The notes: a model not told the origin generated them from the sequence alone. Positions 3,458 through 57,487 are shown, counted from the first letter of the stretch. The stretch is 64,000 bases of DNA from Spirochaetaceae bacterium (GCA_046540995.1 JBKHED010000005.1:32052-96051), one strand, 5' to 3'. Program-made: numbers and translations.

Positions 3458-3472
3458 GACAGGAGTTAAACG

Positions 3473-5224: not shown

Positions 5225-5254
5225 ATTCGCATAGAGCCTCCTTCTACTATGGTT

Positions 5255-5287
5255 GGGCCGACTTCCTCCCGGGAGTCGGCCCTTTTT
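5255..5287 (+). terminator. rho-independent terminator after hydA
   Basis: Stem GGGCCGACT / AGTCGGCCC (extendable by 3 more pairs) followed by TTTTT (5283-5287). Confidence 0.75.
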
Positions 5288-5309
5288 CGCGACCATGGTG
5301 CAAACCCTC

Positions 5310-5338
5310 TTGTCGTCGGCGCGCGGCCATCGTAGCTT
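5310..5338 (+). promoter_or_regulatory. candidate promoter for the SBP lipoprotein / aroDE unit
   Basis: TTGTCG, 17 nt, TAGCTT, then 11 nt to the ATG at 5350. Confidence 0.3.
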
Positions 5339-5349
5339 TACAGCTACCC

Positions 5350-7179
5350 ATGGGACGTTTGAAGCCGCTCAGTGCCCTATTCCTCCTTCTTCTCGCGTTC
5401 TCCGGCTGCTCGAATGGGGGCGACCAGGGGGATGTCGACCCGGTCACCGGGGAGACACCGGCCGCCACCGGTTTCGTGGATAGCGGAGTCCTCCGAATGA
5501 CCCGCCTCCGGAGCCCGATTGAGACTCCGGAGCTCTCTCTGCTCCTCTTGGGGAGGGCGCCAGAAACTCTCAATCCCTGGCGGGATCCGAGCGACCTCGA
5601 GCTCCTGCTCTTTCCTCGCGCTATACGGAGGAACCCGGAAACTCTGGAGTGGGAGCCGTGGATGGCTGAGAGCTGGGAGGTCGGCGAGGAGCGGCGCAGC
5701 GTGGTGGTGACGATCCGAGACGGAGCGTTTTGGAGTGACGGGACGCCGGTGACCGCGGCGGATTGGGTTAGCCCGGCGAATCGGTACTTCACCGATAGGG
5801 CGCTTCGGACGCCGTACCGTGATCGACCGGAGCTCACCGGGCTCGCTCCGCGGTGGGAGTCCCTCGGAGAGCTGAGATTCCGCATTAGCGTCGGACACCC
5901 CGTCGATCGCAATACCCTTCTTTTCCTGCTCTATCTGCCCCCGCTCCCGTCCCGATTCTTGGAGGAGTCGGGGGGTGAACCGAGGGCGAGCCAGGAGCTC
6001 AACGAGCTATGGCGGTTGGACGCCGGCGCCGTCACGAGGGAGGAGATTACGCTTCCTCCCGCGGCGGGGCCCTACGAGCCGCGCTCGGTTAACCCCGCGC
6101 AGAATGGGGAGCTTGCGGTGAGCCTGGAGCGACGGAGTTCCTATCGCGATCCGCGGTACACCGCCTTCGGGGCGGAGCGTATCGTCTTTCGCTTCCAGTT
6201 CGGTCACTCCGGGGGGGAGGCAATCACGGAGAGCGGAGCGGCGAGCGACTTCGAGGAGTCTGGCGCGTTCGGAGAGGCCGATCTGATCTATGTTCCATCC
6301 CCTTCCCCTACCCTGAGTCCCGCCGAGGGGTATGAGCGAGTCTCCGTCGGCGCCGACATGACCCCGGCACTTTTGCTCTTTGCTCCCGCTCTGCCGAACG
6401 CCAGGGAGATCCGCGGGCTCGCCGCGGAGGCGAAGGAACGGTTCTTTCAGGCTATGGAGCGACCGGGAGTGGTTCGCCGGGACCTTCCTTCCCTGGGGAG
6501 TGGGCGCATTCTCTTCTCATCGCCGAGGGAGGGAGTTGAGGGAGAACCGCCCCCCCTCGGGGCGTCGGAGGGCGCCGGGGAGGGGGAGAGCTTGCGCTTG
6601 TTCGTGCTCGACCGGCCGCTCCACCGGGAGTATGTCGAGGGATTCCTGGGGCTCGCCGAGAGGGCGGGTATTCGTGTCGATCCGGAGTACCTGGGGGAGG
6701 AGGAGATCGCCGGCGCTCTCCTCTCATCCGAGAGCTGGGACCTGCTCCTGCTGGAGTTGCGGGAGCGGTTCGATCCGGTGGTGGGTGATCCGCTTCTCGG
6801 CAACGCCCTTCCTCTCACGGGGCAGTGGCGCCTTCTCGCCTCGGAGGCCCCGACCCGGAGCGTACTGAGCGAGCCCCTCTCCCCGACGGAGCTCTCGGAG
6901 CTTCGGGTCGGTGGGATCGAGGAGGCGGAGCTTCCCACCCTTCTTCCGCGTCTCTGGGCAAAGGTCGTCACCTCCCCTCGGGAGGCGGAACGGGAGCGGG
7001 CCCGGGACCTCCTCCAAACACTCTGGAAGCAGGAGGAGCCGTGGCTCTATCTCTATGACGAGGAGCGGCTGCACTACACCCGGAAGAGTCTCGGCAACCT
7101 GTTATTCCGGCATCTCCCGGGGGCCGAGCTCGGGACTCTGCTTCCTCTCATTTATGTCGACGCCGGAGGTGTTCGATGA
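5350..7179 (+). CDS. lipoprotein, family-5 ABC substrate-binding-protein-like (orphan, no permease nearby)
   Basis: Signal peptide with lipobox LLLAFSGC. The segment WMAESWEVGEERRSVVVTIRDGAFWSDGTPVTAADWV resembles the SBP_bac_5 core. Confidence 0.7.
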   Translation: MGRLKPLSALFLLLLAFSGCSNGGDQGDVDPVTGETPAATGFVDSGVLRMTRLRSPIETPELSLLLLGRAPETLNPWRDPSDLELLLFPRAIRRNPETLEWEPWMAESWEVGEERRSVVVTIRDGAFWSDGTPVTAADWVSPANRYFTDRALRTPYRDRPELTGLAPRWESLGELRFRISVGHPVDRNTLLFLLYLPPLPSRFLEESGGEPRASQELNELWRLDAGAVTREEITLPPAAGPYEPRSVNPAQNGELAVSLERRSSYRDPRYTAFGAERIVFRFQFGHSGGEAITESGAASDFEESGAFGEADLIYVPSPSPTLSPAEGYERVSVGADMTPALLLFAPALPNAREIRGLAAEAKERFFQAMERPGVVRRDLPSLGSGRILFSSPREGVEGEPPPLGASEGAGEGESLRLFVLDRPLHREYVEGFLGLAERAGIRVDPEYLGEEEIAGALLSSESWDLLLLELRERFDPVVGDPLLGNALPLTGQWRLLASEAPTRSVLSEPLSPTELSELRVGGIEEAELPTLLPRLWAKVVTSPREAERERARDLLQTLWKQEEPWLYLYDEERLHYTRKSLGNLLFRHLPGAELGTLLPLIYVDAGGVR

Positions 7180-14139: not shown

Positions 14140-16455
14140 ATGGGAAGATGGGGTAGTGTGTTGAAACGGGTTCTTTTTCTCTTCTTACTCGCGGCTCTGG
14201 TTCTCTTCTCCGTCAGCGGGGAAGTCACCTTTGGCGGGCTCGATCTCAATGGTAACAATCAGCTCGTTTTCTCGGCGATGGTCGACGCCCCGGAGTTCGG
14301 TGAGTACGCCACGCTCTTCGAGGCCGATCTGGTTCAGGGAAGAATGCGGCAACTCTCCTACTTTCCCGAGGAGATGATCTACCTCCGGGAGAGTGACCAG
14401 CTCCAGATTCAGAACCGCTTCGGGGTTTTTCGCTCCGCCGAGGGACTTACCGATTTCCAGCCACTCTCGGAGTTTCCTTCTTTCGTAACCGGAGACGAGG
14501 TGGCAACCGGAAAACTGCCACCGATCGCCTCTTCTCCCGACGGTTCGCATCTCGTCTTTATGGAAACGACTTCGGCGGCCTACGGAAACCTGATCCTCTA
14601 CAACATCGAGGAGGGGAGTCGACAGGTGCTCACCCGGGGGGTAGAGTTCGACGTGGAAAGCCCGCCGGTGCGCTGGGCCCCGGAGTCGGACTACCTGGTC
14701 TACGAGAAGGGCCGGGGACTCTACTACTATCCGCTGGAAGGTGAGGGCGGACGGGAGCTCGGTGAGGAGCAGCGACATATCGGCGAGGGCTCGATTAGAA
14801 ACGCCCGCTGGGGCCCGGACAACAACCTCTATTACATTCGCGGTTCCGTGGTATATCGCATTCTGAGCGTCGAGTTTTTCACCCGTTCCCTCTATCGGGA
14901 CCTGCTGCAGGTGGGCACCGTGGTTGGAAAGCTTCCCTACGATTTCGATCCGAACTTCGACGATTTCTGGATCGCTCCGGACGGCAGGAAGATTCTTCTG
15001 AGCAAGGAGGGGCGAAACGTTACCCTCTACTACCTACAGAACGACGACTTTCTCTCCACCGGAGAGACCGTATCACTTCCCTACCTCTTTCTTCCCAGGA
15101 ACAGCAGAGTTCTCGACGTTCTCTGGTCCCGGTCCGATGTCATTACGCTTATGGCCGGGAGCATCCGAAAAGGAGAGCGATCTCGAGCGCTCTATCGCCT
15201 CGACGCGCGGATCCCGGATCAGGCGACTCGGTTCCGCCGGGTGAGCGAAGAGCCGGTCCGGGGAGTGGTCCTCTCGCCGGATGAGCGGCAGGCGGCGGTG
15301 CTCACCAATGACCAGGTTATACTGCGGGACTACGAGAGCTGGAACCGGAGGCGGAGTTTTTCCTTTGTCTCTCCTCTCCACGCCGTCTGGACTCGGGAGA
15401 GTGACCTCGTTGTCGCCGGTGCCGACGCCACGGAGCTCATAGCGTTCTCCGAAGGCGTTCCGCAGCGCTCGATCCTTGCGTTCTCTCGGGTCGACGACTA
15501 CGCCCTCACCGAAGACGGCAGCGTCATCGCCCGCTCGGGTAGCGCAACTCGGAGCCATCTGGAGGGGTCTTGGAGCGAGGGCGGCGAGCTTCCCGAGGAG
15601 GAAGGCAACGTTGCCTCCGAAGAGTACCGGGTATACCTGCAGGATCTTCCCACCGGGAGCTATGAGAACATGGTCATGGTTCGCGATATTGAGGACCTGG
15701 GAACGGAGCCTCTCTTCTCCCGCCCGAGTCGTCGGTTCGAGCGCTTCCCAGACCGGGAGGAGCCGGTAGACCTGGACCATTTCAGCCACGGTTCGAGAAT
15801 TCGCCGTCGCGAGGTGGCGTTTGTCTTCAATGCCGTCGATTCCGTCGCCGGTCTCACGGAAATCTTAAACACCCTTGCTATATATGACGTCCGAGGGACC
15901 TTTTTCGTAAATGGGGAGTTTATTCGGCGCCATCCGGGGGCGGTGCGAGAGATTGCCGAGAGCGGGCAGGAAGTAGGATCTTTGTTCTACACCTATTTCA
16001 ATATGACCGATACTCGGTATAGAATAACTAACGACTTCATTAAGCAGGGACTCGCTCGCAACGAGGATGAGTACTTTCAGGTGACCGGGCAGGAACTTTC
16101 CCTGCTCTGGCACGCGCCTTACTATTTTGTGACTCCCGAGATAATCGAGGCGGCCGGAGAGATGAACTACGCCTATATCGGCCGAGACGTGGATAGCCTG
16201 GACTGGGTTCCTCAGCGGGACGAGAGAGGCATCTCCCGCCTCTACATGCCGACGGCGGAAATCATCGAGCGGGTTATGGAGGAGAAGAAGCCGGGCTCCA
16301 TAATCGCCATGACTGTAGGCAAACCCGGCGACGACACGCCCTACGGTGGGCGGGAAGACTACCTCTTTCAGAGGTTGGATGTGCTGTTGAACAACCTGAT
16401 CGAACGGGGCTACTCGGTGGTTCCGGTTTCGACACTAATGGACCGCGCGGAATAG
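14140..16455 (+). CDS. secreted beta-propeller (TolB-like) protein with a C-terminal NodB/polysaccharide-deacetylase-like domain that has degenerate catalytic motifs
   Basis: N-terminal signal/anchor LFLFLLAALVLFSV. The C-terminus VAFVFNAVDS...RGTFFVNGEFI...GQEVGSLFYTY matches the NodB fold pattern but lacks the TFDDG Asp pair and the H-x-x-x-H histidines. Confidence 0.7.
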   Translation: MGRWGSVLKRVLFLFLLAALVLFSVSGEVTFGGLDLNGNNQLVFSAMVDAPEFGEYATLFEADLVQGRMRQLSYFPEEMIYLRESDQLQIQNRFGVFRSAEGLTDFQPLSEFPSFVTGDEVATGKLPPIASSPDGSHLVFMETTSAAYGNLILYNIEEGSRQVLTRGVEFDVESPPVRWAPESDYLVYEKGRGLYYYPLEGEGGRELGEEQRHIGEGSIRNARWGPDNNLYYIRGSVVYRILSVEFFTRSLYRDLLQVGTVVGKLPYDFDPNFDDFWIAPDGRKILLSKEGRNVTLYYLQNDDFLSTGETVSLPYLFLPRNSRVLDVLWSRSDVITLMAGSIRKGERSRALYRLDARIPDQATRFRRVSEEPVRGVVLSPDERQAAVLTNDQVILRDYESWNRRRSFSFVSPLHAVWTRESDLVVAGADATELIAFSEGVPQRSILAFSRVDDYALTEDGSVIARSGSATRSHLEGSWSEGGELPEEEGNVASEEYRVYLQDLPTGSYENMVMVRDIEDLGTEPLFSRPSRRFERFPDREEPVDLDHFSHGSRIRRREVAFVFNAVDSVAGLTEILNTLAIYDVRGTFFVNGEFIRRHPGAVREIAESGQEVGSLFYTYFNMTDTRYRITNDFIKQGLARNEDEYFQVTGQELSLLWHAPYYFVTPEIIEAAGEMNYAYIGRDVDSLDWVPQRDERGISRLYMPTAEIIERVMEEKKPGSIIAMTVGKPGDDTPYGGREDYLFQRLDVLLNNLIERGYSVVPVSTLMDRAE

Positions 16456-46560: not shown

Positions 46561-47448
46561 ATGCGTCACATTTCGGTTGCCGAACTCCTTCGGCTCCCCC
46601 GGCCTTTTGCGTTTCTCCGGGAGAAAGCGGTCCCCACCCCGGTGGCCGTGGAGCGGGAGCTCTACCAGCCGCCGGTGGTGGCGGTGGTGGAGGAAGGGCG
46701 TTCCCTCCTCTGGGGAAGGGAGACGGTGCGAGTGGCCCGAGAAGCGGGAAGGAGAGAGCTCTGGTGCCGGGAGCTAAAAGGGACGGAACCCCTCGAAGCT
46801 GCAAAGGCGGCCCTGGCGGCGGAGAACCGGCCCGGAGAGTGGGAGCTCGATGAGCTCGTGGCGCTCCTTGCCTTTATCGAGGGGAGGGGGGCTGCGCCCG
46901 ACGAGCCCCTGCGGGAGCTCATCGACGGCTCAAAGCGGGGGCTTCTAGAGCAGGCGCGCAAAGCCGCATCTCTGCCGAAACAGGTTCGGGAGCTGGTGCT
47001 CCGAGGAGCCCTGACGCTTCGGCACGGCGAGGAGCTGGCGCAGCTGCCGGCTCCGCTGGCGGAGGCGGTGGTAGCGGCCCTGGGGGAGGGGAGCTTCAGC
47101 ACCAGGAGAGAGCTGGTGCAGATGAGCGTGGAGCTCTTTAAGCGGTATCAGGAGGAGGATCCGGGAATCGAAGCACGGCTAATCGAAGCGCTCGGGAGCG
47201 CAGACCCCCGACGGACGCTCTACGCGTTGCGATACCCGAGCTACAGCGGCGCCCGGGAAACCCTCGACTCCTTTCGTAGCCGTTTCCTCAAAGGAACCGG
47301 GGTACGCCTCGAGGAGCCGCCGTACCTCGAGGGCGATAGCTTCTCCCTGGTTATTCCTTTTTCCACGCCCCGGGAGCTGGAGAAACGACTCGATGCGGTC
47401 CGGCGAGCGGCGAAAGAGATTGAAGCGGTTACGGAGCTACTCGGATGA
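46561..47448 (+). CDS. ParB/Srx-fold N-terminal domain protein with a degenerate arginine patch
   Basis: PPVVAVVEEGRSLLWGRETVRVAREAGRRELWCREL...ALAAENRPGEWEL parallels the ParB pattern (GERRxRAA...ENxxRxxL). GERR is replaced by GRET. Confidence 0.6.
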   Translation: MRHISVAELLRLPRPFAFLREKAVPTPVAVERELYQPPVVAVVEEGRSLLWGRETVRVAREAGRRELWCRELKGTEPLEAAKAALAAENRPGEWELDELVALLAFIEGRGAAPDEPLRELIDGSKRGLLEQARKAASLPKQVRELVLRGALTLRHGEELAQLPAPLAEAVVAALGEGSFSTRRELVQMSVELFKRYQEEDPGIEARLIEALGSADPRRTLYALRYPSYSGARETLDSFRSRFLKGTGVRLEEPPYLEGDSFSLVIPFSTPRELEKRLDAVRRAAKEIEAVTELLG

Positions 47449-48539
47449 TCTCCTACGGCGCGCATACGCGGTTTGCCCGAGCCTACGTGGAAGAGGCGGT
47501 AGTCCACACCCTTGCCGCGGAACGGGCCAGGGAGTTTCTCGGGGAGCGCGTTCCCCTCACGGTGATTGCGAACCGGGAGGAGATTCCCGAGGAGGATCGG
47601 AACCAGCACACGCTCTTCGTGGCGCGCTCGCCCTCGGGGATGTTCAAGCGATGCCCCGGCAGCCGGGGGCATCTCTGCTGCAACTACCTCACTATCGACC
47701 TCTACGCGGGGTGCACCCTCGGCTGTAGCTACTGCATTATGAAAAGCTATCTCTCCTTCTCCCCGATCACCGTCTACGCCGATCTCTCTCCGGCCATTGC
47801 GGGGCTCAGAGAGGTGGCGCGGCGCAATCCGGATAAGGAGATCAGGGTGGGAACCGGAGAGGTGGGGGACTCCCTTCTCTACGACCCGATCTTTCGGCTC
47901 TCCGAGGAGCTCATTAAGGGTGTGGCGGACCTACCGAATGTACGCCTCGAACTCAAGACAAAGAGTGACTTCGTCGATCACCTCCTCGATCTCGAACCGA
48001 AGGGGCGGAGCGTGATAGGCTTCTCCCTGAATCCTCAGGAGATCATCGATCGGGAAGAGGGGTGGGCGGCCTCCCTAACGGCCCGGCTCGATGCGGCGCG
48101 GCGGGTCGCCGAAGCGGGGTACGCGGTGGCCTTCCACTTCGATCCGATTATTCGCCTGAGTAACTGGCGGGAGCTCTATGAGCAGGTGGTACGGGAGCTC
48201 GAGCCATTTCGTTCTCGGGAGGTCGCCTGGGTAAGCCTCGGCACCGTGCGCTTTACCCGGGCTCTCCGGGAGAAGATAGAGGAGCGCCCCTATCTCTACG
48301 ATGAGTTTTATCCCTCCCGGGACGGCAAGCTGCGCTATCTTCAGAAGGAGCGGGTAGAGGTGTACCGTGCCATGAGTCGGTGGCTCGAGGAGAGCGTGGG
48401 AGCCCGGGTCTATCTCTGCATGGAGTCCGCCGCGGTCTGGCGGCGCGCCTTCGGCGGTGAGCCGAGCACCCTCTCCCGAGGGGTTGCGGAGCTCTTCCGC
48501 TGGCCTCTGGGGATGCCGGAGGAGGAGAAGAAGGAATGA
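47445..48539 (+). CDS. splB: spore-photoproduct-lyase-like radical SAM protein
   Basis: CPGSRGHLCCNYLTIDLYAGCTLGCSYCIM carries the CxxxCxxC radical-SAM triad in an SPL-like context. ATGA coupling to the ParB-like gene. Confidence 0.75.
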   Translation: MISYGAHTRFARAYVEEAVVHTLAAERAREFLGERVPLTVIANREEIPEEDRNQHTLFVARSPSGMFKRCPGSRGHLCCNYLTIDLYAGCTLGCSYCIMKSYLSFSPITVYADLSPAIAGLREVARRNPDKEIRVGTGEVGDSLLYDPIFRLSEELIKGVADLPNVRLELKTKSDFVDHLLDLEPKGRSVIGFSLNPQEIIDREEGWAASLTARLDAARRVAEAGYAVAFHFDPIIRLSNWRELYEQVVRELEPFRSREVAWVSLGTVRFTRALREKIEERPYLYDEFYPSRDGKLRYLQKERVEVYRAMSRWLEESVGARVYLCMESAAVWRRAFGGEPSTLSRGVAELFRWPLGMPEEEKKE

Positions 48540-49495
48540 TACGAGAACGGAGACGACGAGTAAGCACGCTCTTTCTGGCTCTGCTCTTCCTCGCGGCGGT
48601 CCTGCAGGGAGAGGAAATCGGCCGGGTGGCGGCTCTGGCGGATTCAGTCTCGATTGTCCGGGCCGGGGAGCCGATTCCGGGGGCCGTGGAGGGTGGAACG
48701 GCTCTGAAGGCGGAGGACCTGCTCCTAACCGGAGAGGGTTACGGAGAGGTGATTCTCGACGGCCTCGGAAGGCTCCGGCTCTGGCCGGAAACGGTCGTCC
48801 ATCTGCGCGGAAGCGTGGAAATCGAGTTGCTCACGGGGACGGTACAGTTTCGACGGCTCGGCGGAAGCGGCCCGGTACCGATTCTCTCGGGAGCGGTCAC
48901 GGTCCGGATACGATCCGGAGAGGCGACGGTGAGTGCAGGCGCCGGCGACCTCCGTCTCGTCCTATCGGAGTCGGGGCGCCAGCCGGTACTGAGTGAGACC
49001 GGGGTGCGCCGTTTTGCGGAGCCCGGCCGGCCGGTGGGGTTCTACCGGCGCCTCTCGAACATCGAGGGCGCCCCGCTGGAGTGGAGGGAAGCCGCCCTCA
49101 AGACCTTCGCCACCCGGGGTCCTGGGGAGATGGCCGATCGCTTTCAAGAGTACCGGGAGCTCCGGGAACGATTCGATACGGCCTATGAGGAACTTCTCCG
49201 TTATCGAAGCACGCTGAACCGTTGGAGAAGCGAGTTCCGACGTGGCCTCGACCCGAAGGTGGAAGAGACCCTAACCGGAGAACCTGAGCTCTCCGCTGCT
49301 CTGGATGGGGTGCTCGGGGTGAGTGAGGAGATGGAGAGGCGCTACTATCAACTCCGTCTCGACGCCCCTTACCTTCGAGAGGAGTTCCGGGAGTATTTGC
49401 GGCAGGAGGATGCGTACCTAACCGATCGGCTCCATTTCGTTCGCTTTCTGCGCGCCCTTCTGCCCGCCGGCGCGCTCGACCAGGAGAGTGCTTAG
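48536..49495 (+). CDS. secreted FecR-domain-like protein
   Basis: Signal peptide RRRRVSTLFLALLFLAAVLQG. FecR-like VSIVRAGEPIPGAVEGGTALKAEDLLLTGEGYGEVILDGLGRLRLWPETVV. ATGA coupling. Confidence 0.55.
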   Translation: MIRERRRRVSTLFLALLFLAAVLQGEEIGRVAALADSVSIVRAGEPIPGAVEGGTALKAEDLLLTGEGYGEVILDGLGRLRLWPETVVHLRGSVEIELLTGTVQFRRLGGSGPVPILSGAVTVRIRSGEATVSAGAGDLRLVLSESGRQPVLSETGVRRFAEPGRPVGFYRRLSNIEGAPLEWREAALKTFATRGPGEMADRFQEYRELRERFDTAYEELLRYRSTLNRWRSEFRRGLDPKVEETLTGEPELSAALDGVLGVSEEMERRYYQLRLDAPYLREEFREYLRQEDAYLTDRLHFVRFLRALLPAGALDQESA

Positions 49496-50082
49496 AAGAG
49501 GGTGACCTCTCCGCGCTTTTTCTTGTTCCGCTCTTCCCGGAGCTTCTTGAGGTACTCCGTTTCTTCCTCTTCCACCTCATGGACCGTGGTGGTGGCGGTA
49601 ATTCTCTTGAGGAGAACCTTTGCGGTGGTGGGGTAGAAAAAGAGCTTTCGCGCCTGGATTCCTCCGACGTCCGATGCGCTGATCGGTATACCTTCGGTCT
49701 TGAGAAACTCCATGGCAAACTCTACGTTGCTCCGGGGTACATTGCCGGCGGTGGAAGCATGGAGGACGTGGCCCCCGCCGAAGACCTTGGCGACCATCCT
49801 CTGTTTACTTCCGCCGAGCTTGAATAGCTCGTTTATGAGAACCTCCATGGCGTAGAGGCCATACTTGGCGCTCTCCTGGTTAAATCCTCGGTGCGCCTCC
49901 AGGGAGCCGGGAAGCATAAAGTGGTTCAGGCCGCCTACCTTGGCGTTGTCGTCATAGAGCGCTACTGCCACGCAGGAACCGAGGATGGTCGAAATGATCG
50001 TCTCTTCCCCGGTGGCGTAGTACTCACCGGGATGGATAATGATCACATCAGACTGGAACTTGCTGTTGAAATGCCGGTACAT
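49492..50082 (-). CDS. cheD: chemoreceptor glutamine deamidase CheD with a ~35-aa C-terminal extension
   Basis: LGSCVAVALYD, GGLNHFMLP, KVFGGGHV. The tail ends ...KKKRGEVTLF. Confidence 0.85.
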   Translation of the reverse strand: MYRHFNSKFQSDVIIIHPGEYYATGEETIISTILGSCVAVALYDDNAKVGGLNHFMLPGSLEAHRGFNQESAKYGLYAMEVLINELFKLGGSKQRMVAKVFGGGHVLHASTAGNVPRSNVEFAMEFLKTEGIPISASDVGGIQARKLFFYPTTAKVLLKRITATTTVHEVEEEETEYLKKLREERNKKKRGEVTLF

Positions 50083-50096
50083 TCAGTTTACTTTTC

Positions 50097-51872
50097 TCAA
50101 AAGAGTGTCAGCTCGCCGGAGGTTGCTCCGGTCTCGACTTCAATTCCCGCCAGGGCTCCCGCCCGTTGCTTATGGGTAAATATCGTGAATCTATCGATCA
50201 TTGACTGCAGGCGCTCGCTCTGGATCTCCCAGCTCTCGAGACCGACTTCCTCAAGCAGTGGCTCCATCTGGTTGCGAGCGCTCTCCTCGACTCTCGAGAG
50301 CTCGTCTTCGATCTCTTCGATCTGCCGACCAAGATCTTCCAGGCGGGAGAGCTCCTCTTCGGACTGCCCGAAGAGATCAAAGAATCGGTTCGTGAAGAGG
50401 GAGAACCCCTGGACGAAGGAGGCGATCTCCTCGAACTCCCTGTTGAGCCGGTCGTACCGGTTCTGGATCTCCCCTCGAAAGGAGAGAACCAGCGCTTCCT
50501 CCTGATTAAAGAGTCCCCGAAAGTGCTCCACAGCGCTGGACACCTTCTCAATGAACGCCTGGGTGGAGGTAAGGGAGGTCTCCACGTCGTGTTCGATCTT
50601 TCTGGTGAGTTGGGTCATCTCGCCGACGGTGTCGGACATCTGCCGTAGTACTTCCTGCTTTGCTACTTCGATGCGAGAGGCGATATCGATGGAGTGAAAC
50701 CTATTTATGAGGGTCGAAAAGGACTTGAAGTCTCCCTCCAGCTGGTTGATGTCCCGCATGAGCTGTACCGACCGCCGAGAGATGCGCTCTTTGAGCTCCA
50801 TCATCCGGTCCACGTCCGCGAGAACTCGTTCCAAGAGATGGAGCGCCCCCTGTCGCTGCGCGGCCATGCTACCGGTGATTTCGGGGTTCTCCGTCAGTTG
50901 GAGGTACTCCTGCCGCTCCCTCTCGAAGGTGTCGGTAAGCTCCCTTGCCTCACCTATGTGTCCCCGCAACTGCTGGAGGCTCTCCTGGAGCTGCCTCTTA
51001 ACGTCCGCAAGAACCTCCTTGCCGAGGTTCGGTACAAGGGCGACAAAGGAGAGCTCGTCGAGGCGCTGCTCCGTGGAACCAACCTCGCCGGTCTCCTGGA
51101 GCCCCTCGAGGGAGATAATCACGTGGTCCACGGATTGTCTGATAATATCCTGGAGCTGAACGCTCTCCATAATGGAGCGAACGGGGTTCCGAATCGAGCT
51201 GGACCGGTCCTGAAGCCCCTTCATTCCGTTCGTTAGCTCTCGGGTGGCGTTCTGCAGCTTTTCGAAACTGCCAAAAAGCTCCTTCCGAAGCCGGTTAAAG
51301 AGCTCTTCCTCGAAGGATCGGACCTCGTCAATGGTAGAGCGGAACTCCTGGAAGTCCTCCAGGAGCTGCTGCCCTCGCCGGGTGATCTCATCGGAGAGCT
51401 CTATGGTTCTCGCCGAGAGCCGTTTGAGCTCCTCGGTTATGTAGGAAAAGGCCCGACCCGCGGAGCCCGCCTTGAGAGCGACGGTCATAGCGTTGAGTGA
51501 GATGAGCTCCATATCCTCCGAGTCGTGTCTAATAGCGGCGATGAGCTCCTCCAGAGAGGAGAGATTCTCAATCGCCTCCCGGAGCTGCTGGTAAAACGCC
51601 TCGTCCTCCTCGTGCATCGCCGAAAGCTTAGCCGTAGATTCCTCGAGAGCGTGTCTGGTCTCTTCCAAGAGTGCTCCAAGGGCGGCTTCGCCGCTCTCCG
51701 TGGCGGCGAGACCGGCGATTGTCGACTCCGAGCGGTTGAGGGAGTGCTCCATCTCCTGCATGAGCTTCGGAAAGGTCTCTCCCAGTCTGAGAAAGACCCG
51801 CTCCGTCTCGGAGACAAAGCCCTTTAGGGTGTCAATAATCCGGTCTCGGAGCTCGACGGTCTGCCTATCCAT
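50097..51872 (-). CDS. soluble methyl-accepting-chemotaxis-like protein with a divergent signalling tip
   Basis: ISLNAMTVALKAGSAGRAFSYITEELKRLSARTIE parallels the MCP hairpin consensus LALNAAIEAARAGExGRGFAVVAxEVRxLAERS. It has no hydrophobic helices and is coiled-coil throughout. Confidence 0.7.
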   Translation of the reverse strand: MDRQTVELRDRIIDTLKGFVSETERVFLRLGETFPKLMQEMEHSLNRSESTIAGLAATESGEAALGALLEETRHALEESTAKLSAMHEEDEAFYQQLREAIENLSSLEELIAAIRHDSEDMELISLNAMTVALKAGSAGRAFSYITEELKRLSARTIELSDEITRRGQQLLEDFQEFRSTIDEVRSFEEELFNRLRKELFGSFEKLQNATRELTNGMKGLQDRSSSIRNPVRSIMESVQLQDIIRQSVDHVIISLEGLQETGEVGSTEQRLDELSFVALVPNLGKEVLADVKRQLQESLQQLRGHIGEARELTDTFERERQEYLQLTENPEITGSMAAQRQGALHLLERVLADVDRMMELKERISRRSVQLMRDINQLEGDFKSFSTLINRFHSIDIASRIEVAKQEVLRQMSDTVGEMTQLTRKIEHDVETSLTSTQAFIEKVSSAVEHFRGLFNQEEALVLSFRGEIQNRYDRLNREFEEIASFVQGFSLFTNRFFDLFGQSEEELSRLEDLGRQIEEIEDELSRVEESARNQMEPLLEEVGLESWEIQSERLQSMIDRFTIFTHKQRAGALAGIEVETGATSGELTLF

Positions 51873-51878
51873 TGCTCA

Positions 51879-51907
51879 AGTATACCTGTACTTCCGCCTT
51901 CTTCCAA
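51879..51907 (-). promoter_or_regulatory. promoter of the MCP-like / cheD unit (leaderless-type spacing)
   Basis: On the minus strand: TTGGAA, 17 nt, TATACT, then 6 nt to the ATG at 51872. Confidence 0.45.
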
Positions 51908-51921
51908 GTTCTCCGATTCGC

Positions 51922-51952
51922 ACAATAAAAAGGCCGTCCGAGCGGACGGCCT
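51922..51952 (-). terminator. rho-independent terminator after the ABC ATPase gene
   Basis: Stem AGGCCGTCC / GGACGGCCT with a 4-nt loop. On the minus strand it is followed by TTTTTATTGTG. Confidence 0.7.
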
Positions 51953-51991
51953 TGGTCATTTCTGCACACGGCACTGAGCACGCCCGTGTTC

Positions 51992-53116
51992 TTAGACGGG
52001 ATCAGCGGCACGAACACCTTCGACGTTCAGGGCTTCTTCAGTCTCCAGGTCAAAGAGGATCGCTCGCTCCATGTGAGGTACGAACTTCGCCTTGTCACCA
52101 ACGCTGAGGTGAACGTCCGGTTGGGTTCGAACGATTATCTGGTGGCTTCCGGTATTCACGTAGTGGTGGATTTCGGCTCCCAGGGGTTCGACAACCTCCA
52201 CGGTTACCGGCACGAAGGAGTGCTCCTTCGGGTTCTCCTCGTAGGAGAGGTCCTCGGGACGGATGCCGAAGGTGAGCTTCTTGCCTACTCTGCTCTTGGC
52301 GACTTCCGCGGCCTTGCCGGTGAGCTCGATGGTAAAGTTGCCCTCATCGGCGAGGTATTTGCCGTTCTCCTCCCTGACATCCACGACCATGAAGTTCATC
52401 GGGGGAGAGCCGATAAAGCCCGCCACGAAGCGGTTAATCGGCTTGTTGTAGAGGGTCAGGGGGTCACCAATCTGCTGAATAAAACCGTCCTTCATGACAA
52501 CGATCTTGTCGCCCATGGTCATGGCCTCTACCTGGTCATGGGTAACATAAACCATCGTTGCCTGAAGGCGGTTGTGCAACGCGGAAATCTCGGCCCGCAT
52601 CTGCACTCGTAGCTTGGCGTCCAGGTTGGAAAGGGGCTCGTCAAAGAGGAATACCTTTGGCTGTCGCACTATGGCGCGACCGACGGCGACACGCTGCCGC
52701 TGTCCACCCGAAAGCGCCTTGGGCTTACGCTCGAGAAGCATCCCGATATCGAGGATCTTCGCCGCCTCGTCGACCCGTTTTTTAATTTCCTCCTTATCGA
52801 ACTTGCGGATCTTGAGACCGAAGGCCATGTTGTCGTAGACACTCATGTGCGGGTATAGAGCGTAGTTCTGAAAGACCATCGCGATGTCCCGGTCCTTCGG
52901 GGGTACGTCGTTAACCCGTTTGCCATCGATAATCAGGTCACCGCCGGAAATATCTTCGAGACCTGCGATCATTCGGAGGGTGGTGGTCTTTCCACAGCCC
53001 GAGGGGCCGACCAGTACCACAAACTCCTTGTCTGCAATCTCAATGTTCGCGTCTTTGACCGCGGTAACATTGCCCTCATAAACCTTTGTCAGGTTTTTCA
53101 ACTGAACATTTGCCAT
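51992..53116 (-). CDS. sugar-type ABC transporter ATP-binding protein (MalK/UgpC/MsmK-like), orphan
   Basis: [34 protein letters not shown], and a C-terminal TOBE-like regulatory domain. Confidence 0.92.
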
Positions 53117-53246: not shown

Positions 53247-54494
53247 TCAGAGCCCCCGGGCGCGGTACCACTGATCGATCGCTTCTCCTAGGTCGGTGTC
53301 GGGCGCCCGAGGCTCCTCACCGGAGTGAAGACGTATAGACTCTCTAAGCCAAGGGCCCACAACGTCCTCCTCCACTACGCTCCAGTTGAGAGGCGTCCGG
53401 CGGGGAAAGGCGAGGCGCTCCGTCGGGGGGATGCTTCCGAGGAGAGCGGGATGGATCTCGGTGATGATTGTACGATTCACCTCGGGAAGGGAGGAGAGTC
53501 CTCGGAGAAATCCGAAGCTGTCGATCTGCCGGTCCGTACTGGTTTCCATGAGTCGCTGCTGGACCGCGGGATCGAGCAACCAGCGGAGAAAGTCCACACC
53601 CTGTCGCCGATTCTGGGCTCGGTTTGGAATAGCGGCGTAGACGATTTCCGGGAGAACCGGTATCGCCTCGTCGCCACTGAGCCAGCGAATCGACATGTCC
53701 CGGGTCTCCCGGTCCGGTCGGGAGAGAAACTCTCCGGCGGTAGTATAGTAGAAGCCGATTCGCCCGCGACGAAGGAGCTTCTCCGCCGGGTCGTATAGGT
53801 AGCGCTCCGAGAACGCCTCGGCGGCGTCGTTTCCTCCGTTTACCTCTTGTCGCCAGCTGACGCCTGACTCGAGCAGCTGCTCCAAGGCACTCTGATCCCA
53901 AGCGACCCTGAGCTCCGCGATTTCGGTAAATGCGGTTCCCTGGAGTTGCGCCCAGGCGAGGAGAAAGCGCTCGTCCCAGAGCGGGGAGAAACCCATCCTC
54001 ACGTATCGTTCCGATTCCAGTTCGTTAAACGCCTCTGCTCGGGTTCTCAACTCATCGATGGTAATCCTCCGCGTCGACTGTTCCGGAAGGGTGACATCGA
54101 GAAACTGGACCGCCGGAAGGTCGAAGGAGAGTGGAAGAAAGCGAAGAGCGTCGCGATAGCGGCCCAGGGCGAGCAAATCAGGGTAGATCCTCTCGGCAGC
54201 GTCGTCCGCCGTTGACGGGAGCTCCTGCATGTACTCGGCGAGGTTCCGGTTGGCCAGACCCCGACCAATGATTACGTCCGGTTCCCCACCCTCGGTAAGG
54301 ACCGCTTCCGCCACGTCAGTTCGGAAGACGACCTTGACCTTTGTCTGCTCCCGTTCGGCGTTGTAGAGCTCCGCGTAGAGAGCCATCAGGGGCTGATCTG
54401 TCCAGAGCTCTACGAACTCCGTGGTTTCGTGCCGATCGCAGCCGGACAACAGCATGGCGGCGACGAGGGGCAAAAGAAGAAGTCGCGGTTTCAT
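53247..54494 (-). CDS. lipoprotein, extracellular solute-binding-protein-like
   Basis: Internal ATG followed by LLLLPLVAAMLLSGC (lipobox). The size and alpha/beta pattern fit SBP family 1. No strong motif. Confidence 0.55.
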   Translation of the reverse strand: MKPRLLLLPLVAAMLLSGCDRHETTEFVELWTDQPLMALYAELYNAEREQTKVKVVFRTDVAEAVLTEGGEPDVIIGRGLANRNLAEYMQELPSTADDAAERIYPDLLALGRYRDALRFLPLSFDLPAVQFLDVTLPEQSTRRITIDELRTRAEAFNELESERYVRMGFSPLWDERFLLAWAQLQGTAFTEIAELRVAWDQSALEQLLESGVSWRQEVNGGNDAAEAFSERYLYDPAEKLLRRGRIGFYYTTAGEFLSRPDRETRDMSIRWLSGDEAIPVLPEIVYAAIPNRAQNRRQGVDFLRWLLDPAVQQRLMETSTDRQIDSFGFLRGLSSLPEVNRTIITEIHPALLGSIPPTERLAFPRRTPLNWSVVEEDVVGPWLRESIRLHSGEEPRAPDTDLGEAIDQWYRARGL

Positions 54495-54519
54495 GATCGG
54501 GAGGAGCTCCTGGCGGTTG

Positions 54520-55827
54520 TCACGGCTGGGCAAGCTCCTCCGCGGCGGCGTATATCTCGTCATAGAGCTCAGGGAGGGAGTCCGCATCAACGCTGGCGAA
54601 GGCGACCCTGAGGTAGCTTCCGTCTATTGAGATGGTCCCGATGCCTCGGTCGAGAAGTAAGAGTCGTAGCTCTTCGGCGTCGATGCCGCGGCAGCGAAAG
54701 CTCATAAAGTAGCCCGAGTTGAACGGGAGCGGCTCGAGAGGGGAAGCGTGATGAAGGGGCGCCTTTTCTGCGAGCCAGCGCTTAATGATTCCGTACCGCT
54801 CTCTTAGCACTTCTCGCGCTTTCTCCTTCTGCTCGTAGTAACTCGGGTCGTTCATCACCTTGAGAAGCAGATGCTGTGAGAGGTTGCTAGTGTTGGAGAC
54901 GATCGCCCGAAGAGAGCCGACAAACTTCTGTTCCAAGGCGTCGATCGCCTCACGCCCCAGTGCCGGATTTCCGAAGGTGAGAAAGCCGACTCGCAGCCCC
55001 CAGGCAAAGTCCTCCTTCGTCGCCCCGTCGATTTTGATCGCCAGGATCCGCTCGTGGACGTCCACGAGGGAGGCGAAAATCGACTCCTCGGCGAGTTCGG
55101 GCTCGAAGAAGAGGCCGAAATAGGCGTCGTCGGAGATTACGAGGATGTCCACCCCGCTGTCCGCGAGCTTCGTTAACCGCTCCACGATGCCCCGCACCTC
55201 CGCCGTCGAAGGCGAGTATCCGGTGGGGTTGTTGGGAAAATTGAGAAGCAGCACGACTTTCCTTCGTTCCGCGGCGGCAGCCTCCAGGGAGACCGAGAAA
55301 CCCTCGAGGTTAAAGCCTCCCTCCTCGGAGAAGAAGGGAAAGGTCTCTATTCGCGCCTCTTTGCGATGCTCGAAGATGAGCCGGTAGTTGCCCCAGAACA
55401 TATCTGGCATAACCACCGGGTCGCCCGTATTCACAAAGAGCTCCGCCACATGAACGATACCGTTGGTCAGGCCCGAGGTGACCATGGGTGTCGAGGTGGT
55501 CTTCCCGCGCAAGGAGGGGTTTTTCGCGATCATTTCCTCTTTCCACCGCTTCCTAAGCTCCGCCACTCCCGGAGTGGGGGCGTAGGCGACGCTTTCGGAA
55601 GGGTGAAAGTGATGGGTCAGCGCCGCGGCGCTCGGCAGGATCAGCGGGACCCCTTCCTTATACGCCATGCCGGCAGTGGCGTTAAAACGGTGCGCTCTGC
55701 TCTTCGCCTCCGCGGACTGCGCCACGATCCCCTTCGGAAAGAAGAGGCGTCTTCCTGTTTCCGAGAGGAGGCGGCCAACAACGGTCGGTTCGAGGCTTTT
55801 GTTGAGCTTCTCAGCCAGAGAGTTCAT
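54520..55827 (-). CDS. class I/II PLP-dependent aminotransferase
   Basis: NFPNNPTGY and the PLP-lysine context DGATKEDFAWGLRVGF. The start at 55827 is supported by a promoter 7 nt upstream. Confidence 0.8.
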   Translation of the reverse strand: MNSLAEKLNKSLEPTVVGRLLSETGRRLFFPKGIVAQSAEAKSRAHRFNATAGMAYKEGVPLILPSAAALTHHFHPSESVAYAPTPGVAELRKRWKEEMIAKNPSLRGKTTSTPMVTSGLTNGIVHVAELFVNTGDPVVMPDMFWGNYRLIFEHRKEARIETFPFFSEEGGFNLEGFSVSLEAAAAERRKVVLLLNFPNNPTGYSPSTAEVRGIVERLTKLADSGVDILVISDDAYFGLFFEPELAEESIFASLVDVHERILAIKIDGATKEDFAWGLRVGFLTFGNPALGREAIDALEQKFVGSLRAIVSNTSNLSQHLLLKVMNDPSYYEQKEKAREVLRERYGIIKRWLAEKAPLHHASPLEPLPFNSGYFMSFRCRGIDAEELRLLLLDRGIGTISIDGSYLRVAFASVDADSLPELYDEIYAAAEELAQP

Positions 55828-55834
55828 AAGGCCC

Positions 55835-55863
55835 ACTATACAAAGCGCTCCAGCTCTGTGCAA
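55835..55863 (-). promoter_or_regulatory. promoter of the aminotransferase gene (leaderless-type spacing)
   Basis: On the minus strand: TTGCAC, 17 nt, TATAGT, then 7 nt to the ATG at 55827. Confidence 0.45.
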
Positions 55864-55874
55864 TCACGGGGAGA

Positions 55875-55903
55875 TTGACCCCGGCGGGGTAACAAAGTAT
55901 GGT
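55875..55903 (+). promoter_or_regulatory. promoter of the 525-aa hypothetical gene (leaderless-type spacing)
   Basis: TTGACC, 17 nt, TATGGT, then 6 nt to the ATG at 55910. Confidence 0.45.
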
Positions 55904-55909
55904 AGCACC

Positions 55910-57487
55910 ATGGCTAAGGGCGATGTGGAGGAGCCGAGAGGCGCACCCCCATCGGAAGAAACCGACGGCTTGGGGTTCGTCGAAAAGATCATCGCAATTC
56001 TTTTCGGAGGCAACGATCCCGAGCGGCAAAAGCGTAGGCTCCTCAAACAGGTTGCGAAAGACCTGAACAAGTCCAAATACAACTTCTACAAGCCTCGAAG
56101 CAAGGAAGCTCTGCCCGGCTTTGCCAAGTTCTTCTACGCCCATTACAGGGTGGTTGGTCCGGCGCAACAGCTCCTGCAGAACGCCGCCGGCTCCAAGAGC
56201 CTCAAATCACTCGTTATCGACTCCTACCTCACGGAGAAACAGCGGGAGCTACGGGACCAGTTCGATGAGGAGTCCATCCGAGAGCGGGCGAAGGAGATCG
56301 ACACCAAGCAGCTCGCCGAGGAGCTCAAGGACGGGATGATCAACTTTTACGGCTCCTTCGACGCGGAGCTCGTAAAGCGGATTAACAACGCCTACAACCT
56401 GGCGCAGCTCTTTCTTCGATTCGTCAATTTCGACTACTACTTCGCCCTTCGCAAGTTCGACTCCGCCATTACGGAGAACAACTTCACCTATAAGCCGAGC
56501 TTCGACGCAATAAGCGCGGAGTACGTGGTCGACGATATTCGCGACTTTCTAGAGACCGCTCTGGTACTCGACCCGAAGGCTGCCTGGGACCCGGTAATCG
56601 ACATACTCAAAGAGTACCGCGCCGTGGAAGTGGTTGACCGCGATGCCTTCAAGAAGAGTATAAAGGATGTTGCCGCAGTGGTGCGCGACAACGTCCTGGA
56701 GCTCATGGTACGGCACATTACCGATGATCCCTTCTGGAAGGCGAAAGGGGTCGGTTCTAACGAGCGAATCGTGGAGCCCTATCTCAACGCCCTCAAGACA
56801 ACCACCGAGGCGAATGTACAGAAGCTCCTGAACGAGCGTCGGGAGAAGAAGATCGACGCCCTGGTGCAGCAGGTGTTCGGCACAACCGTCGTTGCCCGTA
56901 CCAAGAACTACACCGAAAAGGGCAACCTCATGTTCGCCAAGCGGGCGATGGCAGGGTTCACGCACACTCAGGCGCTCAATTTTCTCAAAGCGTATCTCCT
57001 CGACTACTTCAAGAAGGATGTCCGGGAGCTGGTGCAGGACATGCTCCTGGTTCGAGGAAAATGGGTCACCAACATCCAGTCCCAGCAACTATCCGACGCC
57101 TACCATCAGGTAATGCAGATCTCCGAGAGCCTGGTCTCCTTTGATGAGAGTCTCGGGGAAGAGGGTGAACGGGGCATGAAGCTCAAGAAAGCCGCGGGGC
57201 GAGTCGTTGAGCGAGACCCTGCCACCGCGAAGCTCTTAAAGGAACAGCTCAATAGCATTAACAAGGAGGCGCAGCGGCTCATTTCCGAAGCCTCCAGCAA
57301 CCTGGTGACAATCGGTAAATTCCTCAAAATGTTGGTAGCGGACTACGATCAGACCGAGCACGACCTGGTGAACAACTGGAAGGAGCTGGACGGGATGATC
57401 GAGGAGCCGATCCGGGAGAGAATGGTGGAGACCTACAAACAGCTCTACCGTTTTTTGCAGCTCATGCAGGTTCTTGCCAAGCGGTAG
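55910..57487 (+). CDS. all-helical hypothetical protein (525 aa)
   Basis: Long ORF with coding-like composition. The start is chosen from the promoter geometry. No recognisable motif. Confidence 0.6.
   Translation: MAKGDVEEPRGAPPSEETDGLGFVEKIIAILFGGNDPERQKRRLLKQVAKDLNKSKYNFYKPRSKEALPGFAKFFYAHYRVVGPAQQLLQNAAGSKSLKSLVIDSYLTEKQRELRDQFDEESIRERAKEIDTKQLAEELKDGMINFYGSFDAELVKRINNAYNLAQLFLRFVNFDYYFALRKFDSAITENNFTYKPSFDAISAEYVVDDIRDFLETALVLDPKAAWDPVIDILKEYRAVEVVDRDAFKKSIKDVAAVVRDNVLELMVRHITDDPFWKAKGVGSNERIVEPYLNALKTTTEANVQKLLNERREKKIDALVQQVFGTTVVARTKNYTEKGNLMFAKRAMAGFTHTQALNFLKAYLLDYFKKDVRELVQDMLLVRGKWVTNIQSQQLSDAYHQVMQISESLVSFDESLGEEGERGMKLKKAAGRVVERDPATAKLLKEQLNSINKEAQRLISEASSNLVTIGKFLKMLVADYDQTEHDLVNNWKELDGMIEEPIRERMVETYKQLYRFLQLMQVLAKR

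Follow-up and report, generated by a model that had tools for sequence, protein, structure and literature searches.

A C-terminal tail shared by a BB0569-like receptor protein and its neighbour CheD as a candidate docking motif

Why should a chemoreceptor-like protein and the receptor deamidase encoded next to it end in the same peptide? The question is raised by a gene pair in a 64,000-nt stretch of a Spirochaetaceae bacterium genome (GCA_046540995.1, JBKHED010000005.1:32052-96051; hereafter the window, with positions counted from its first letter), in which a soluble protein resembling methyl-accepting chemotaxis proteins (MCPs) ends in GELTLF and CheD ends in GEVTLF. A sequence-only reading of this DNA had pointed out the two endings and suggested that they mark a common docking partner or clustering signal, by analogy with the NWETF peptide that tethers CheR and CheB. 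We find that the ending is conserved, that it is confined to these two linked proteins and that it changes in parallel in both between phyla, and we favour the view that the tails would peg both proteins to one chemotaxis component. The pair, with its open reading frames (ORFs), AlphaFold2 (AF2) models and profile matches, is laid out as follows.

50097..51872, minus strand: MCP-like gene, encoding a 591-aa soluble protein of the BB0569 / McpA-like kind (ORF; Pfam MCPsignal; AF2; profile matches)
49492..50082, minus strand: cheD, encoding a 196-aa chemoreceptor glutamine deamidase (Pfam PF03975, 2f9z match, conserved residues)
50100..50117, minus strand: terminal motif GELTLF of the MCP-like protein (stop codon 50097-50099)
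49495..49512, minus strand: terminal motif GEVTLF of CheD (stop codon 49492-49494)

A conserved tail confined to two linked proteins

The MCP-like protein ends in ...ETGATSGELTLF immediately before its stop codon (in a longer stretch, ...IEVETGATSGELTLF), and CheD ends in ...NKKKRGEVTLF (in a longer stretch, ...EERNKKKRGEVTLF). The ORFs place both tails where the sequence-only reading had put them, and with the unlike codons that it had claimed (ggc gag ctg aca ctc ttt tga in the MCP-like gene, gga gag gtc acc ctc ttc taa in cheD); because these differ at wobble positions, the likeness does not stem from a recent DNA duplication. By Pfam, the first protein gives a weak MCPsignal match (aa 93-239, 35.8 bits against a cut-off of 34.6), and the second scores as CheD (PF03975) above the gathering score (102.1 bits against a cut-off of 25). 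The cheD ORF begins 14 nt 3′ of the MCP-like ORF.

When the genome was searched for other proteins with this ending, as had been proposed, only the pair itself was returned, E[VL]TLF being the C-terminus of these two alone among 14,704 six-frame ORFs of at least 60 aa in the 3.14-Mb assembly; a looser ending, [VILPFAM][TEDVISKL][LFIMVW]F-COOH, is found in 14 of 4,607 ORFs of at least 150 aa. The motif is terminal in 116 of 120 MCP-like homologues (down to 38% identity) and lies 1-12 residues from the end in 2 others, and the corresponding counts for 120 CheD homologues (down to ~52% identity) are 83 and 32. Thr occupies position −3 in 116/116 terminal MCP-like tails and 82/83 terminal CheD tails, a total of 198/199, and position 2 of the pentapeptide is V, I, L or F in the receptor (F in 3/81) and V, I or P in CheD. 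An alignment of 81 members of the MCP-like family, which are about 38-48% identical overall with a mean column identity of 48%, gives the tail consensus G-[ED]-[VI]-T-[LFM]-F, in which G586, T589 and F591 are invariant (81/81). Across Spirochaetota the tail is therefore conserved in orthologous MCP-like/CheD pairs, which was the comparison on which the sequence-only reading had staked its proposal.

A back-translated DNA pattern for [DE][VI]T[LF]F-stop, scanned over 12 related genomes with the reversed pattern as control, gave 14 matches against 5 for the control. Thirteen of them fall at the MCP-like/CheD locus, and the fourteenth (L147) lies outside every ORF of at least 100 aa and is probably due to chance. 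Neither the genome ORFs nor the scan of these 12 relatives contained a third family of tail-bearing proteins. The MCP-like gene stands directly upstream of cheD in 30/30 loci from relatives of the same order, and of 80 named Spirochaetota loci, among them Alkalispirochaeta, Sediminispirochaeta, Treponemataceae and Breznakiellaceae, nearly all those with sufficient flanking sequence show this arrangement. Neither of the two MCP-like genes without the tail (L079, L092) has cheD next to it. A phylum-wide search reached more distant members of the family, of which three lineages, with labels inferred from genome features that include gene order, show the following combinations.

Treponema-like: MCP-like tail GEITFF or GDITFF; cheD adjacent; CheD tail lost in 2/3
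Brachyspira-like: MCP-like tail SGDFTLF; cheD 4-5 kb away; CheD tail KSDITLF
Borrelia-like: MCP-like tail EGSVILF; cheD unlinked; no CheD tail (short CheD)

The same pairing in proteobacterial chemotaxis clusters

In an alphaproteobacterial CheD clade, 113/119 sequences end in [IV][ED]LF. We examined four proteobacterial clusters (L133, L194, L195 and L196), in which the genes are ordered STAS-cheY-cheA-cheW-(Aer2-like)-cheR-cheD-cheB-mcpA-like, the Aer2-like gene being absent from L195; this order matches an ancestral F7 layout described previously (PMC7184735). Their proteins end as follows.

CheD, four clusters: EIELF, NIELF, DVELF, NIELF
McpA-like receptors, four clusters: DIELF, NIDLF, DIELF, NVELF
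Aer2-like receptors, three clusters: GWEEF, SWQEF, DWKEF (canonical pentapeptides)

No such tail is carried by CheA, CheW, CheY, CheR, CheB or the STAS protein of the four clusters. Position −3 is Thr in both tail-bearing proteins in Spirochaetota and Glu or Asp in both in these F7-type clusters, and such a parallel change in two unrelated proteins fits co-evolution with one shared site, which makes it the main argument for a common partner.

The receptors of the two phyla can also be compared directly. A profile of the spirochete family matches an alphaproteobacterial McpA-like protein with an hhalign probability of 94.5% (E 7.6e-8), and a conserved block of the spirochete protein that includes D242 comes into register with VQFQDRNSQ; McpA-like proteins carry LQFQD[KR]NTQ ~105 residues after the tip of their hairpin, and D242 lies 107 residues after the spirochete tip. 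Judged by this profile similarity, the first of two helical hairpins in the MCP-like protein (described below) is homologous to McpA-like receptors of the P. aeruginosa McpA/PA0180 type, with which it shares a hairpin with a conserved tip, the Q[FL]QDxxxQ motif, a flexible segment, a terminal x-[VI]-x-L-F and a co-encoded CheD bearing the same tail. The two differ in size (354-394 aa and one hairpin in the four proteobacterial proteins, 591 aa and two hairpins in the spirochete), in setting (beside cheB or cheY within an F7 che cluster, as opposed to outside any che cluster and paired with cheD) and in the −3 residue (Glu/Asp as opposed to Thr). The McpA C-terminus has been described as strikingly conserved, of unclear role, and not a pentapeptide on account of the Val at position 2 (PMC7184735). 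The spirochete tail is a variant of this motif already noted on McpA-like receptors, and what is new is that CheD shares it, of which we found no published mention, together with the link to BB0569 set out below.

The McpA-like gene and the end of cheB share 4 nt in each of the four clusters (L133 10692-10695, L194 9688-9691, L195 9705-9708, L196 9710-9713), and the Borrelia-like orthologue of bb0569 overlaps cheB by 1 nt (L149 2890). Overlaps with cheB in two phyla suggest translational coupling of the atypical receptor to CheB.

Both tails sit on extensions predicted to be flexible

The CheD of the window matches T. maritima CheD (2f9z chain C, E 4e-20) in an alignment that stops at query residue 162. 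T32, C37 (in LGSCVAV) and H54 (in NHFMLP) are invariant in 82 sequences, and C37 and H54 fall in the same columns as in 2f9z; from the T. maritima structural literature we take these two to be the deamidase catalytic residues. What follows the aligned core is the extension that carries the tail.

49495..49599, minus strand: 35-aa C-terminal extension of CheD, TATTTVHEVEEEETEYLKKLREERNKKKRGEVTLF (beyond the 2f9z alignment; AF2)

It runs from an acidic helix (EEExYL) through a basic linker to the tail, with E171, E173, E174, Y177, L178 and F196 at least 90% conserved in the 82 sequences. The sequence-only reading had regarded an extension of ~35 aa as atypical for CheD. It is absent from T. maritima 2f9z, yet it proves widespread: among 150 CheD representatives clustered at 50% identity, 92 have a [VI]x[LF]F tail, terminal in 57 and near-terminal in 35, and the −3 residue is T in 22, E in 17 and D in 9. 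Natural fusions with CheD as their C-terminal part also occur (P0343, P0345, P0349, P0355), as a REC-CheD protein of 380 aa and CheR-CheD proteins of 496-541 aa. The VTLF or VELF ending is retained by two of the CheR-CheD proteins, and one natural fusion ends in ...FEEFEN, which looks like a near-terminal aromatic pentapeptide.

The corresponding part of the MCP-like protein is longer.

50100..50174, minus strand: predicted-disordered, conserved C-terminal region of the MCP-like protein, HKQRAGALAGIEVETGATSGELTLF, aa 567-591 (pLDDT 27-40, AF2)

AF2, given alignments of 81-82 sequences, modelled the folded parts of both proteins confidently, the CheD core among them, and both tails with low confidence by the predicted local distance difference test (pLDDT): the CheD helix 166-189 scores 57-72 and residues 194-196 score <50, and residues 567-591 of the MCP-like protein score 27-40. 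Within this last region H567, K568, A571, G576, V579, E580, G582, G586, T589 and F591 are each conserved in 70-81/81 sequences, the consensus of the last 25 residues of the family being HK..AG.L.GF.VE.G..SG[ED][VI]T[LF]F. The region is preceded by ...RFTIF, which we take to resemble the hydrophobic ...F-x-[IV] end of MCP signalling domains, and the layout therefore mirrors that of known receptor tethers. Docking in cis found no support, as AF2 left both tails undocked on their own protein with low confidence; undocked, low-confidence tails on confident folds are what is usually seen when a motif binds in trans.

A candidate docking motif and what weighs against it

A motif that is disordered, terminal, more conserved than its surroundings and confined to two linked proteins fits a short linear docking motif. 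The reading that we favour, at a probability of roughly 0.55, is that both tails are copies of one such motif, G-[D/E]-[V/I/L]-T-[L/F]-F-COOH, each borne on the tip of a flexible C-terminal extension, one on an atypical soluble twin-hairpin receptor-like protein of the BB0569 family and the other on the receptor deamidase encoded next to it. The motif would insert, probably as a short β-strand, into one site on a third chemotaxis component, and this shared site would hold both proteins in the same place, either the chemoreceptor array or a soluble client of the array, so that CheD would be concentrated beside the atypical receptor. That the tail binds a partner, and which, we infer from the features described above. 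The idea of a common docking or clustering signal in the sequence-only reading is thus retained as the best account of a conserved, pair-confined and disordered tail, and its analogy with the NWETF tether is disfavoured for reasons given below. Our results do not discriminate between the candidate partners: a REC domain, whether that of CheY or that of CheB; the CheA/CheW baseplate, with which the spirochete CheW-CheR-like protein is counted (PMC10653840); or one of the two tail-bearing proteins themselves. A REC domain is a candidate because of gene adjacency, cheB overlapping the McpA-like gene in four clusters and also the Borrelia-like orthologue, and because cheY follows that orthologue and a REC-CheD fusion exists.

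Several observations weigh against this reading. The receptor tail is kept and the CheD tail lost in Borrelia-like and in 2/3 Treponema-like genomes, and in four Spirochaetales loci (L097, L100, L107 and L122; also L018) the CheD tail has turned into ...[SE]-[AM]-E-L-L next to an MCP-like protein that still ends in GEVTLF or GDVTLF, so the two tails are not strictly interdependent. Within Spirochaetota, where position −2 may be L, F or M, there is no clear co-variation of the two tails. In roughly one CheD homologue in four the motif is followed by 1-12 further residues, and a free carboxylate is therefore not essential there. The 25 residues ahead of the receptor tail are themselves conserved, and the functional unit may be larger than a pentapeptide.

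A wider version of the docking reading seems to us rather unlikely as a whole. It would treat x-[VI]-[T/E]-[LF]-F as a phylum-spanning docking code of an accessory array module, in which the atypical receptor, BB0569 in spirochetes and McpA-like in Proteobacteria, and CheD would be pegged to one site on a REC protein (CheY or CheB) or on the CheA/CheW baseplate, and the invariant Q-x-Q-D-x-x-x-Q block of the receptor would act on whatever client is held there, for instance as a CheZ-like phosphatase of phosphorylated CheY (CheY~P) modulated by CheD, as CheC and CheX work with CheD.

The locus links the conserved non-aromatic C-terminus of McpA-like receptors, the mechanism of BB0569 and CheD through one peptide, and it touches two long-standing loose ends, the role of the McpA-like C-terminus and the mechanism of BB0569, which is essential for chemotaxis in the Lyme spirochete. 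At six to twenty-five residues the tail is a short, synthesisable bait for finding the partner; were one found, the tail would be a second receptor-tail code beside the NWETF-CheR/CheB tether and would account for the positioning of CheD in the many organisms without CheC.

An atypical twin-hairpin receptor of the BB0569 family

The AF2 model of the MCP-like protein, built from the family alignment, has a mean pLDDT of 80 and is almost wholly helical. It consists of two antiparallel hairpins, the first formed by helices 3-134 and 136-256 and the second by helices 267-405 and 413-543, and in this model the protein seems to imitate, within one chain, the bundle of a receptor dimer.

51417..51512, minus strand: receptor-type tip of hairpin 1, MELISLNAMTVALKAGSAGRAFSYITEELKRL, aa 121-152 (mostly invariant residues in 81 homologues)
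51123..51158, minus strand: block QLQDIIRQSVDH, aa 239-250, at the tip-distal end of hairpin 1 (conservation in 81 homologues)
50244..51074, minus strand: hairpin 2, aa 267-543 (AF2 secondary structure; conserved block F385...K405)

The tip of hairpin 1, with the invariant sequence SLNAMTVALKAGSAGRAFSYITEELKRL, aligns to the NATIEAARAGEAGKGF tip of MCPs, and the tip of hairpin 2 is degenerate (IDIASRIEVAKQ; RFHSIDIASRIEVAKQ at ~aa 391-406). There is no HAMP or sensor domain: the protein is helical save for short loops and the disordered tail in the model, and Pfam recognises the weak MCPsignal match alone. In a PDB profile search the family matches the T. maritima soluble receptor 3g6b (E 4.9e-12), and a fold search of the model against the PDB was uninformative, returning generic coiled-coils and MCP hairpins only. 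The 81-sequence alignment contains no recognisable adaptation (methylation/deamidation) site, its sole conserved Glx-Glx pair being E147-E148 at the tip. DosM-type double-signalling-domain receptors (V. cholerae VC1403) also carry two receptor-type hairpins on one chain; we liken the window protein to them by description only, and it differs in that its second hairpin has merely a degenerate tip.

The tip-distal block, which reads Q239-L-Q-D242-I-I-R-Q246-S-V-D-H250, is the second most conserved block of the protein, with Q239, Q246, S247 and H250 invariant and Q241, D242 and D249 at least 90% conserved in the 81 sequences. It is the Q[FL]QDxxxQ motif common to McpA-like receptors, and it resembles the D143/Q147 site of CheZ. 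The pattern Q[LFVIM]QDxxxQ occurs once in the genome, in this protein, and is absent from 30 ordinary MCP loci of relatives.

The MCP-like protein matches a Borrelia-like gene between cheB and cheY over residues 10-591 (E 4e-35 to 4e-36, to proteins of 590-597 aa). This orthologue has CheA, CheB and a REC protein as neighbours, in the order cheA-cheB-X-cheY, and the published position of bb0569 is cheW2-bb0566-cheA1-cheB2-bb0569-cheY2 (PMC10703414). Full-length similarity and the same gene position therefore make the window protein a distant member of the BB0569 family. The Borrelia-like orthologue shares an LQFQDRLTQ motif, an RFT[IL]F..HK segment and a hydrophobic ...GSVILF end with it, but is only 21-24% identical to it, has Ile instead of Thr at −3 of the tail, and is encoded in a che operon and not beside cheD; the Borrelia-like CheD differs too, being short and without extension or tail. 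In B. burgdorferi, BB0569 has been characterised as an atypical cytoplasmic MCP that is polar and required for chemotaxis (PMC5318424, PMC10703414), and we found no published mention of its tail or of the sharing of that tail with CheD.

Alternative explanations for the shared tail

The likeness of the tip-distal block to CheZ invites another account, namely that Q-x-Q-D-x-x-x-Q is a CheZ-type catalytic site for CheY~P, that the tail tethers the REC domain of CheY or of CheB, much as the C-terminal peptide of CheZ does, and that CheD carries the same tether in order to meet the same CheY. Like CheZ, the MCP-like protein combines a long helical bundle bearing a D-x-x-x-Q motif with a C-terminal peptide on a flexible linker. 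The conserved D242 and Q246 (as given above) lie in a motif that occurs once in the genome and in none of the ordinary MCP loci compared, and the sole local alignment that hhalign makes with E. coli CheZ sets D242/Q246 on D143/Q147 (DFQDLTGQ), with IM on IM. Pfam finds CheZ below threshold in 14/81 family members (best E 2.9e-4), and in the one inspected, P0166, the match spans the return helix up to the motif at 14.3 bits against a cut-off of 30.7. Gene neighbourhood, with the Borrelia-like orthologue between cheB and cheY and the McpA-like genes overlapping cheB by 4 nt, is in keeping with such a role, as is the existence of a natural REC-CheD fusion, and CheD is said to stimulate the phosphatase CheX in Borrelia.

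The hhalign match is nevertheless non-significant (probability 0.1%, E 0.55), the window protein itself has no Pfam CheZ (PF04344) match even at E 10, and no CheZ structure is found among the matches of the PDB profile search. Membership of the CheZ family was accordingly rejected, since across the PDB profile search, hhalign and Pfam at E ≤10 the match is non-significant and at the level of the motif. No significant similarity extends beyond ~12 residues, the motif stands at the end of the bundle and not in its middle as in CheZ, and the CheZ tail (...DDLLDSLGF) is unlike that of the window protein, which also differs from helical CheZ or FliM CheY-binding peptides. A five-residue motif on a helix is weak evidence that D242/Q246 form a catalytic D-x-x-x-Q of the CheZ type. 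The genome, moreover, already encodes a dedicated phosphatase, in a standard spirochete flagellar chemotaxis operon on contig C19 (~2185-6815, minus strand) that consists of cheA (778 aa), a cheW-CheR-like fusion (456 aa), cheX (158 aa) and cheY (144 aa); elsewhere it encodes two more CheA, three single CheW, two CheR of the classical kind and a 1,203-aa CheR-containing multidomain protein. A bb0569 mutant reportedly runs constantly, a low-CheY~P phenotype that is the opposite of what loss of a phosphatase would be expected to give. Taken with these points, the phosphatase account appears unlikely.

A degenerate NWETF-type tether, serving CheR and/or CheB or the CheR-like domain of the CheW-CheR-like protein, is the account closest to the sequence-only analogy, and it would act, as in Tar/Tsr-like receptors, by raising the local concentration of the partner. 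The layout is that of Tar and Tsr, in which the signalling helix ends, a flexible segment follows and an unstructured terminal peptide finishes in Phe with a hydrophobic residue at position 2; the tail lies at the extreme C-terminus (terminal in 116/120 homologues) on a linker predicted to be unstructured (pLDDT 27-40). In the Borrelia-like and proteobacterial clusters cheB is the immediate upstream, overlapping gene, CheR-CheD fusions exist, and the genome encodes a CheW-CheR-like fusion, a protein that is anchored in spirochete arrays (PMC10653840). However, with L or V at position 2, ELTLF and EVTLF do not fit x-[FWY]-x-x-[FWY] (xZxxZ, as defined in PMC7390727), whose aromatics at positions 2 and 5 play a central part in the binding of CheR (PMC7390727), and the motif is to this extent non-canonical, as had been remarked from the sequence. 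None of the four CheRs of P. aeruginosa bound the McpA tail, an outcome attributed to its Val at position 2 (PMC7184735, citing Garcia-Fontana 2014). The tail also sits on an enzyme, CheD, and not just on receptors. Canonical tails are borne by separate receptors, two ordinary MCPs of this genome ending in EFTEY and DFETY and the proteobacterial Aer2-like receptors in GWEEF, SWQEF and DWKEF, and a second, distinct motif beside them therefore points to a distinct site. The docking site is probably not the pentapeptide pocket of CheR, the analogy with the CheR/CheB tether is disfavoured, and a degenerate tether of this type looks quite unlikely.

The pentapeptide-bearing MCPs of the clade (contigs C46, ~14987-15844, minus strand, and C11, 22945-23934, plus strand; loci L164-L193) have disordered linkers with 1-2 conserved motifs, [KE]-T-G-I-[TA]-L-A and often G-I-S-L-D-L, ahead of their x-F-x-x-[YF] end, as in ...EKGITLAMNEGSDALDEDFETY and ...ETGITLADDDDGNGISLDLDSRGGDDLDGDFEEY. 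The [IV]-T-L core of these linker motifs resembles the GE[VI]TLF tail.

The partner might instead be found within the pair, if the tail bound either the core of CheD or, on the receptor bundle, the conserved QLQD/LDELxF end, so that one copy recruited in trans and the other competed or auto-inhibited in cis. This would suit the restriction of the tail to exactly these two proteins, whose genes are tightly linked, and the strongly conserved surface block at the tip-distal end of the bundle, and receptor-like helices are known targets of CheD, the CheC-CheD complex 2f9z being an example. The AF2 models from deep alignments dock neither tail onto its own protein, however, and Borrelia-like genomes keep the receptor tail although their cheD is unlinked and tail-less, and we hold such reciprocal or competitive binding to be very unlikely. 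A C-terminal degradation or stability signal (degron) for coordinated turnover of both proteins is highly improbable, for although hydrophobic C-termini on disordered tails are typical protease-adaptor tags, a basic cluster (NKKKRG) precedes the CheD tail and BB0569 levels are reportedly governed by turnover when mcp2 or mcp3 is inactivated, the invariant G, T and F at fixed positions and the parallel −3 switch between phyla look like specific recognition and not like a generic hydrophobic tag, many CheDs tolerate residues beyond the motif, and the residues ahead of it are acidic in the receptor but basic in CheD.

Genomic context of the pair

The candidate docking motif is carried by two genes that lie outside any che cluster, the MCP-like gene having only an ATP-binding cassette (ABC) ATPase gene and cheD as neighbours in the window. 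A consensus scan placed two candidate signals ahead of the MCP-like gene.

51879..51907, minus strand: promoter-like site TTGGAA-17-TATACT, just 5′ of the MCP-like start codon (consensus scan only)
51930..51953, minus strand: terminator-like hairpin with a 10-bp stem, 7 G-C pairs and a T-rich tail (consensus scan only)

The hairpin lies between the upstream ABC ATPase gene and the MCP-like gene, and the gene downstream of cheD is convergent. Hairpin, promoter-like site and convergent neighbour together suggest that the MCP-like gene and cheD form a separate two-gene transcription unit.

The ABC ATPase is MalK/UgpC-like (~372 aa; 51992-53116, minus strand), lies directly upstream of the MCP-like gene, and is found in the same place on the same strand in 71/80 Spirochaetota loci (L053-L132). 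We considered it as a partner of the tails and found it unlikely, the terminator-like hairpin and promoter-like site separating it from the pair and no such gene being present in the proteobacterial clusters that bear the same tails. Further upstream is a lipoprotein-like gene (~430 aa; 53247-54590, minus strand), kept in 43/80 Spirochaetota loci. The convergent ORF (319 aa; 48536-49495, plus strand) has no Pfam match and ends 4 nt inside the cheD stop region, and a homologue of it recurs in 29/80 related loci. Two flanking genes unrelated to the tails encode a DUF5312 protein (606 aa; 55667-57487, plus strand) and a spore-photoproduct-lyase-like radical S-adenosylmethionine (SAM) protein (364 aa; 47445-48539, plus strand).

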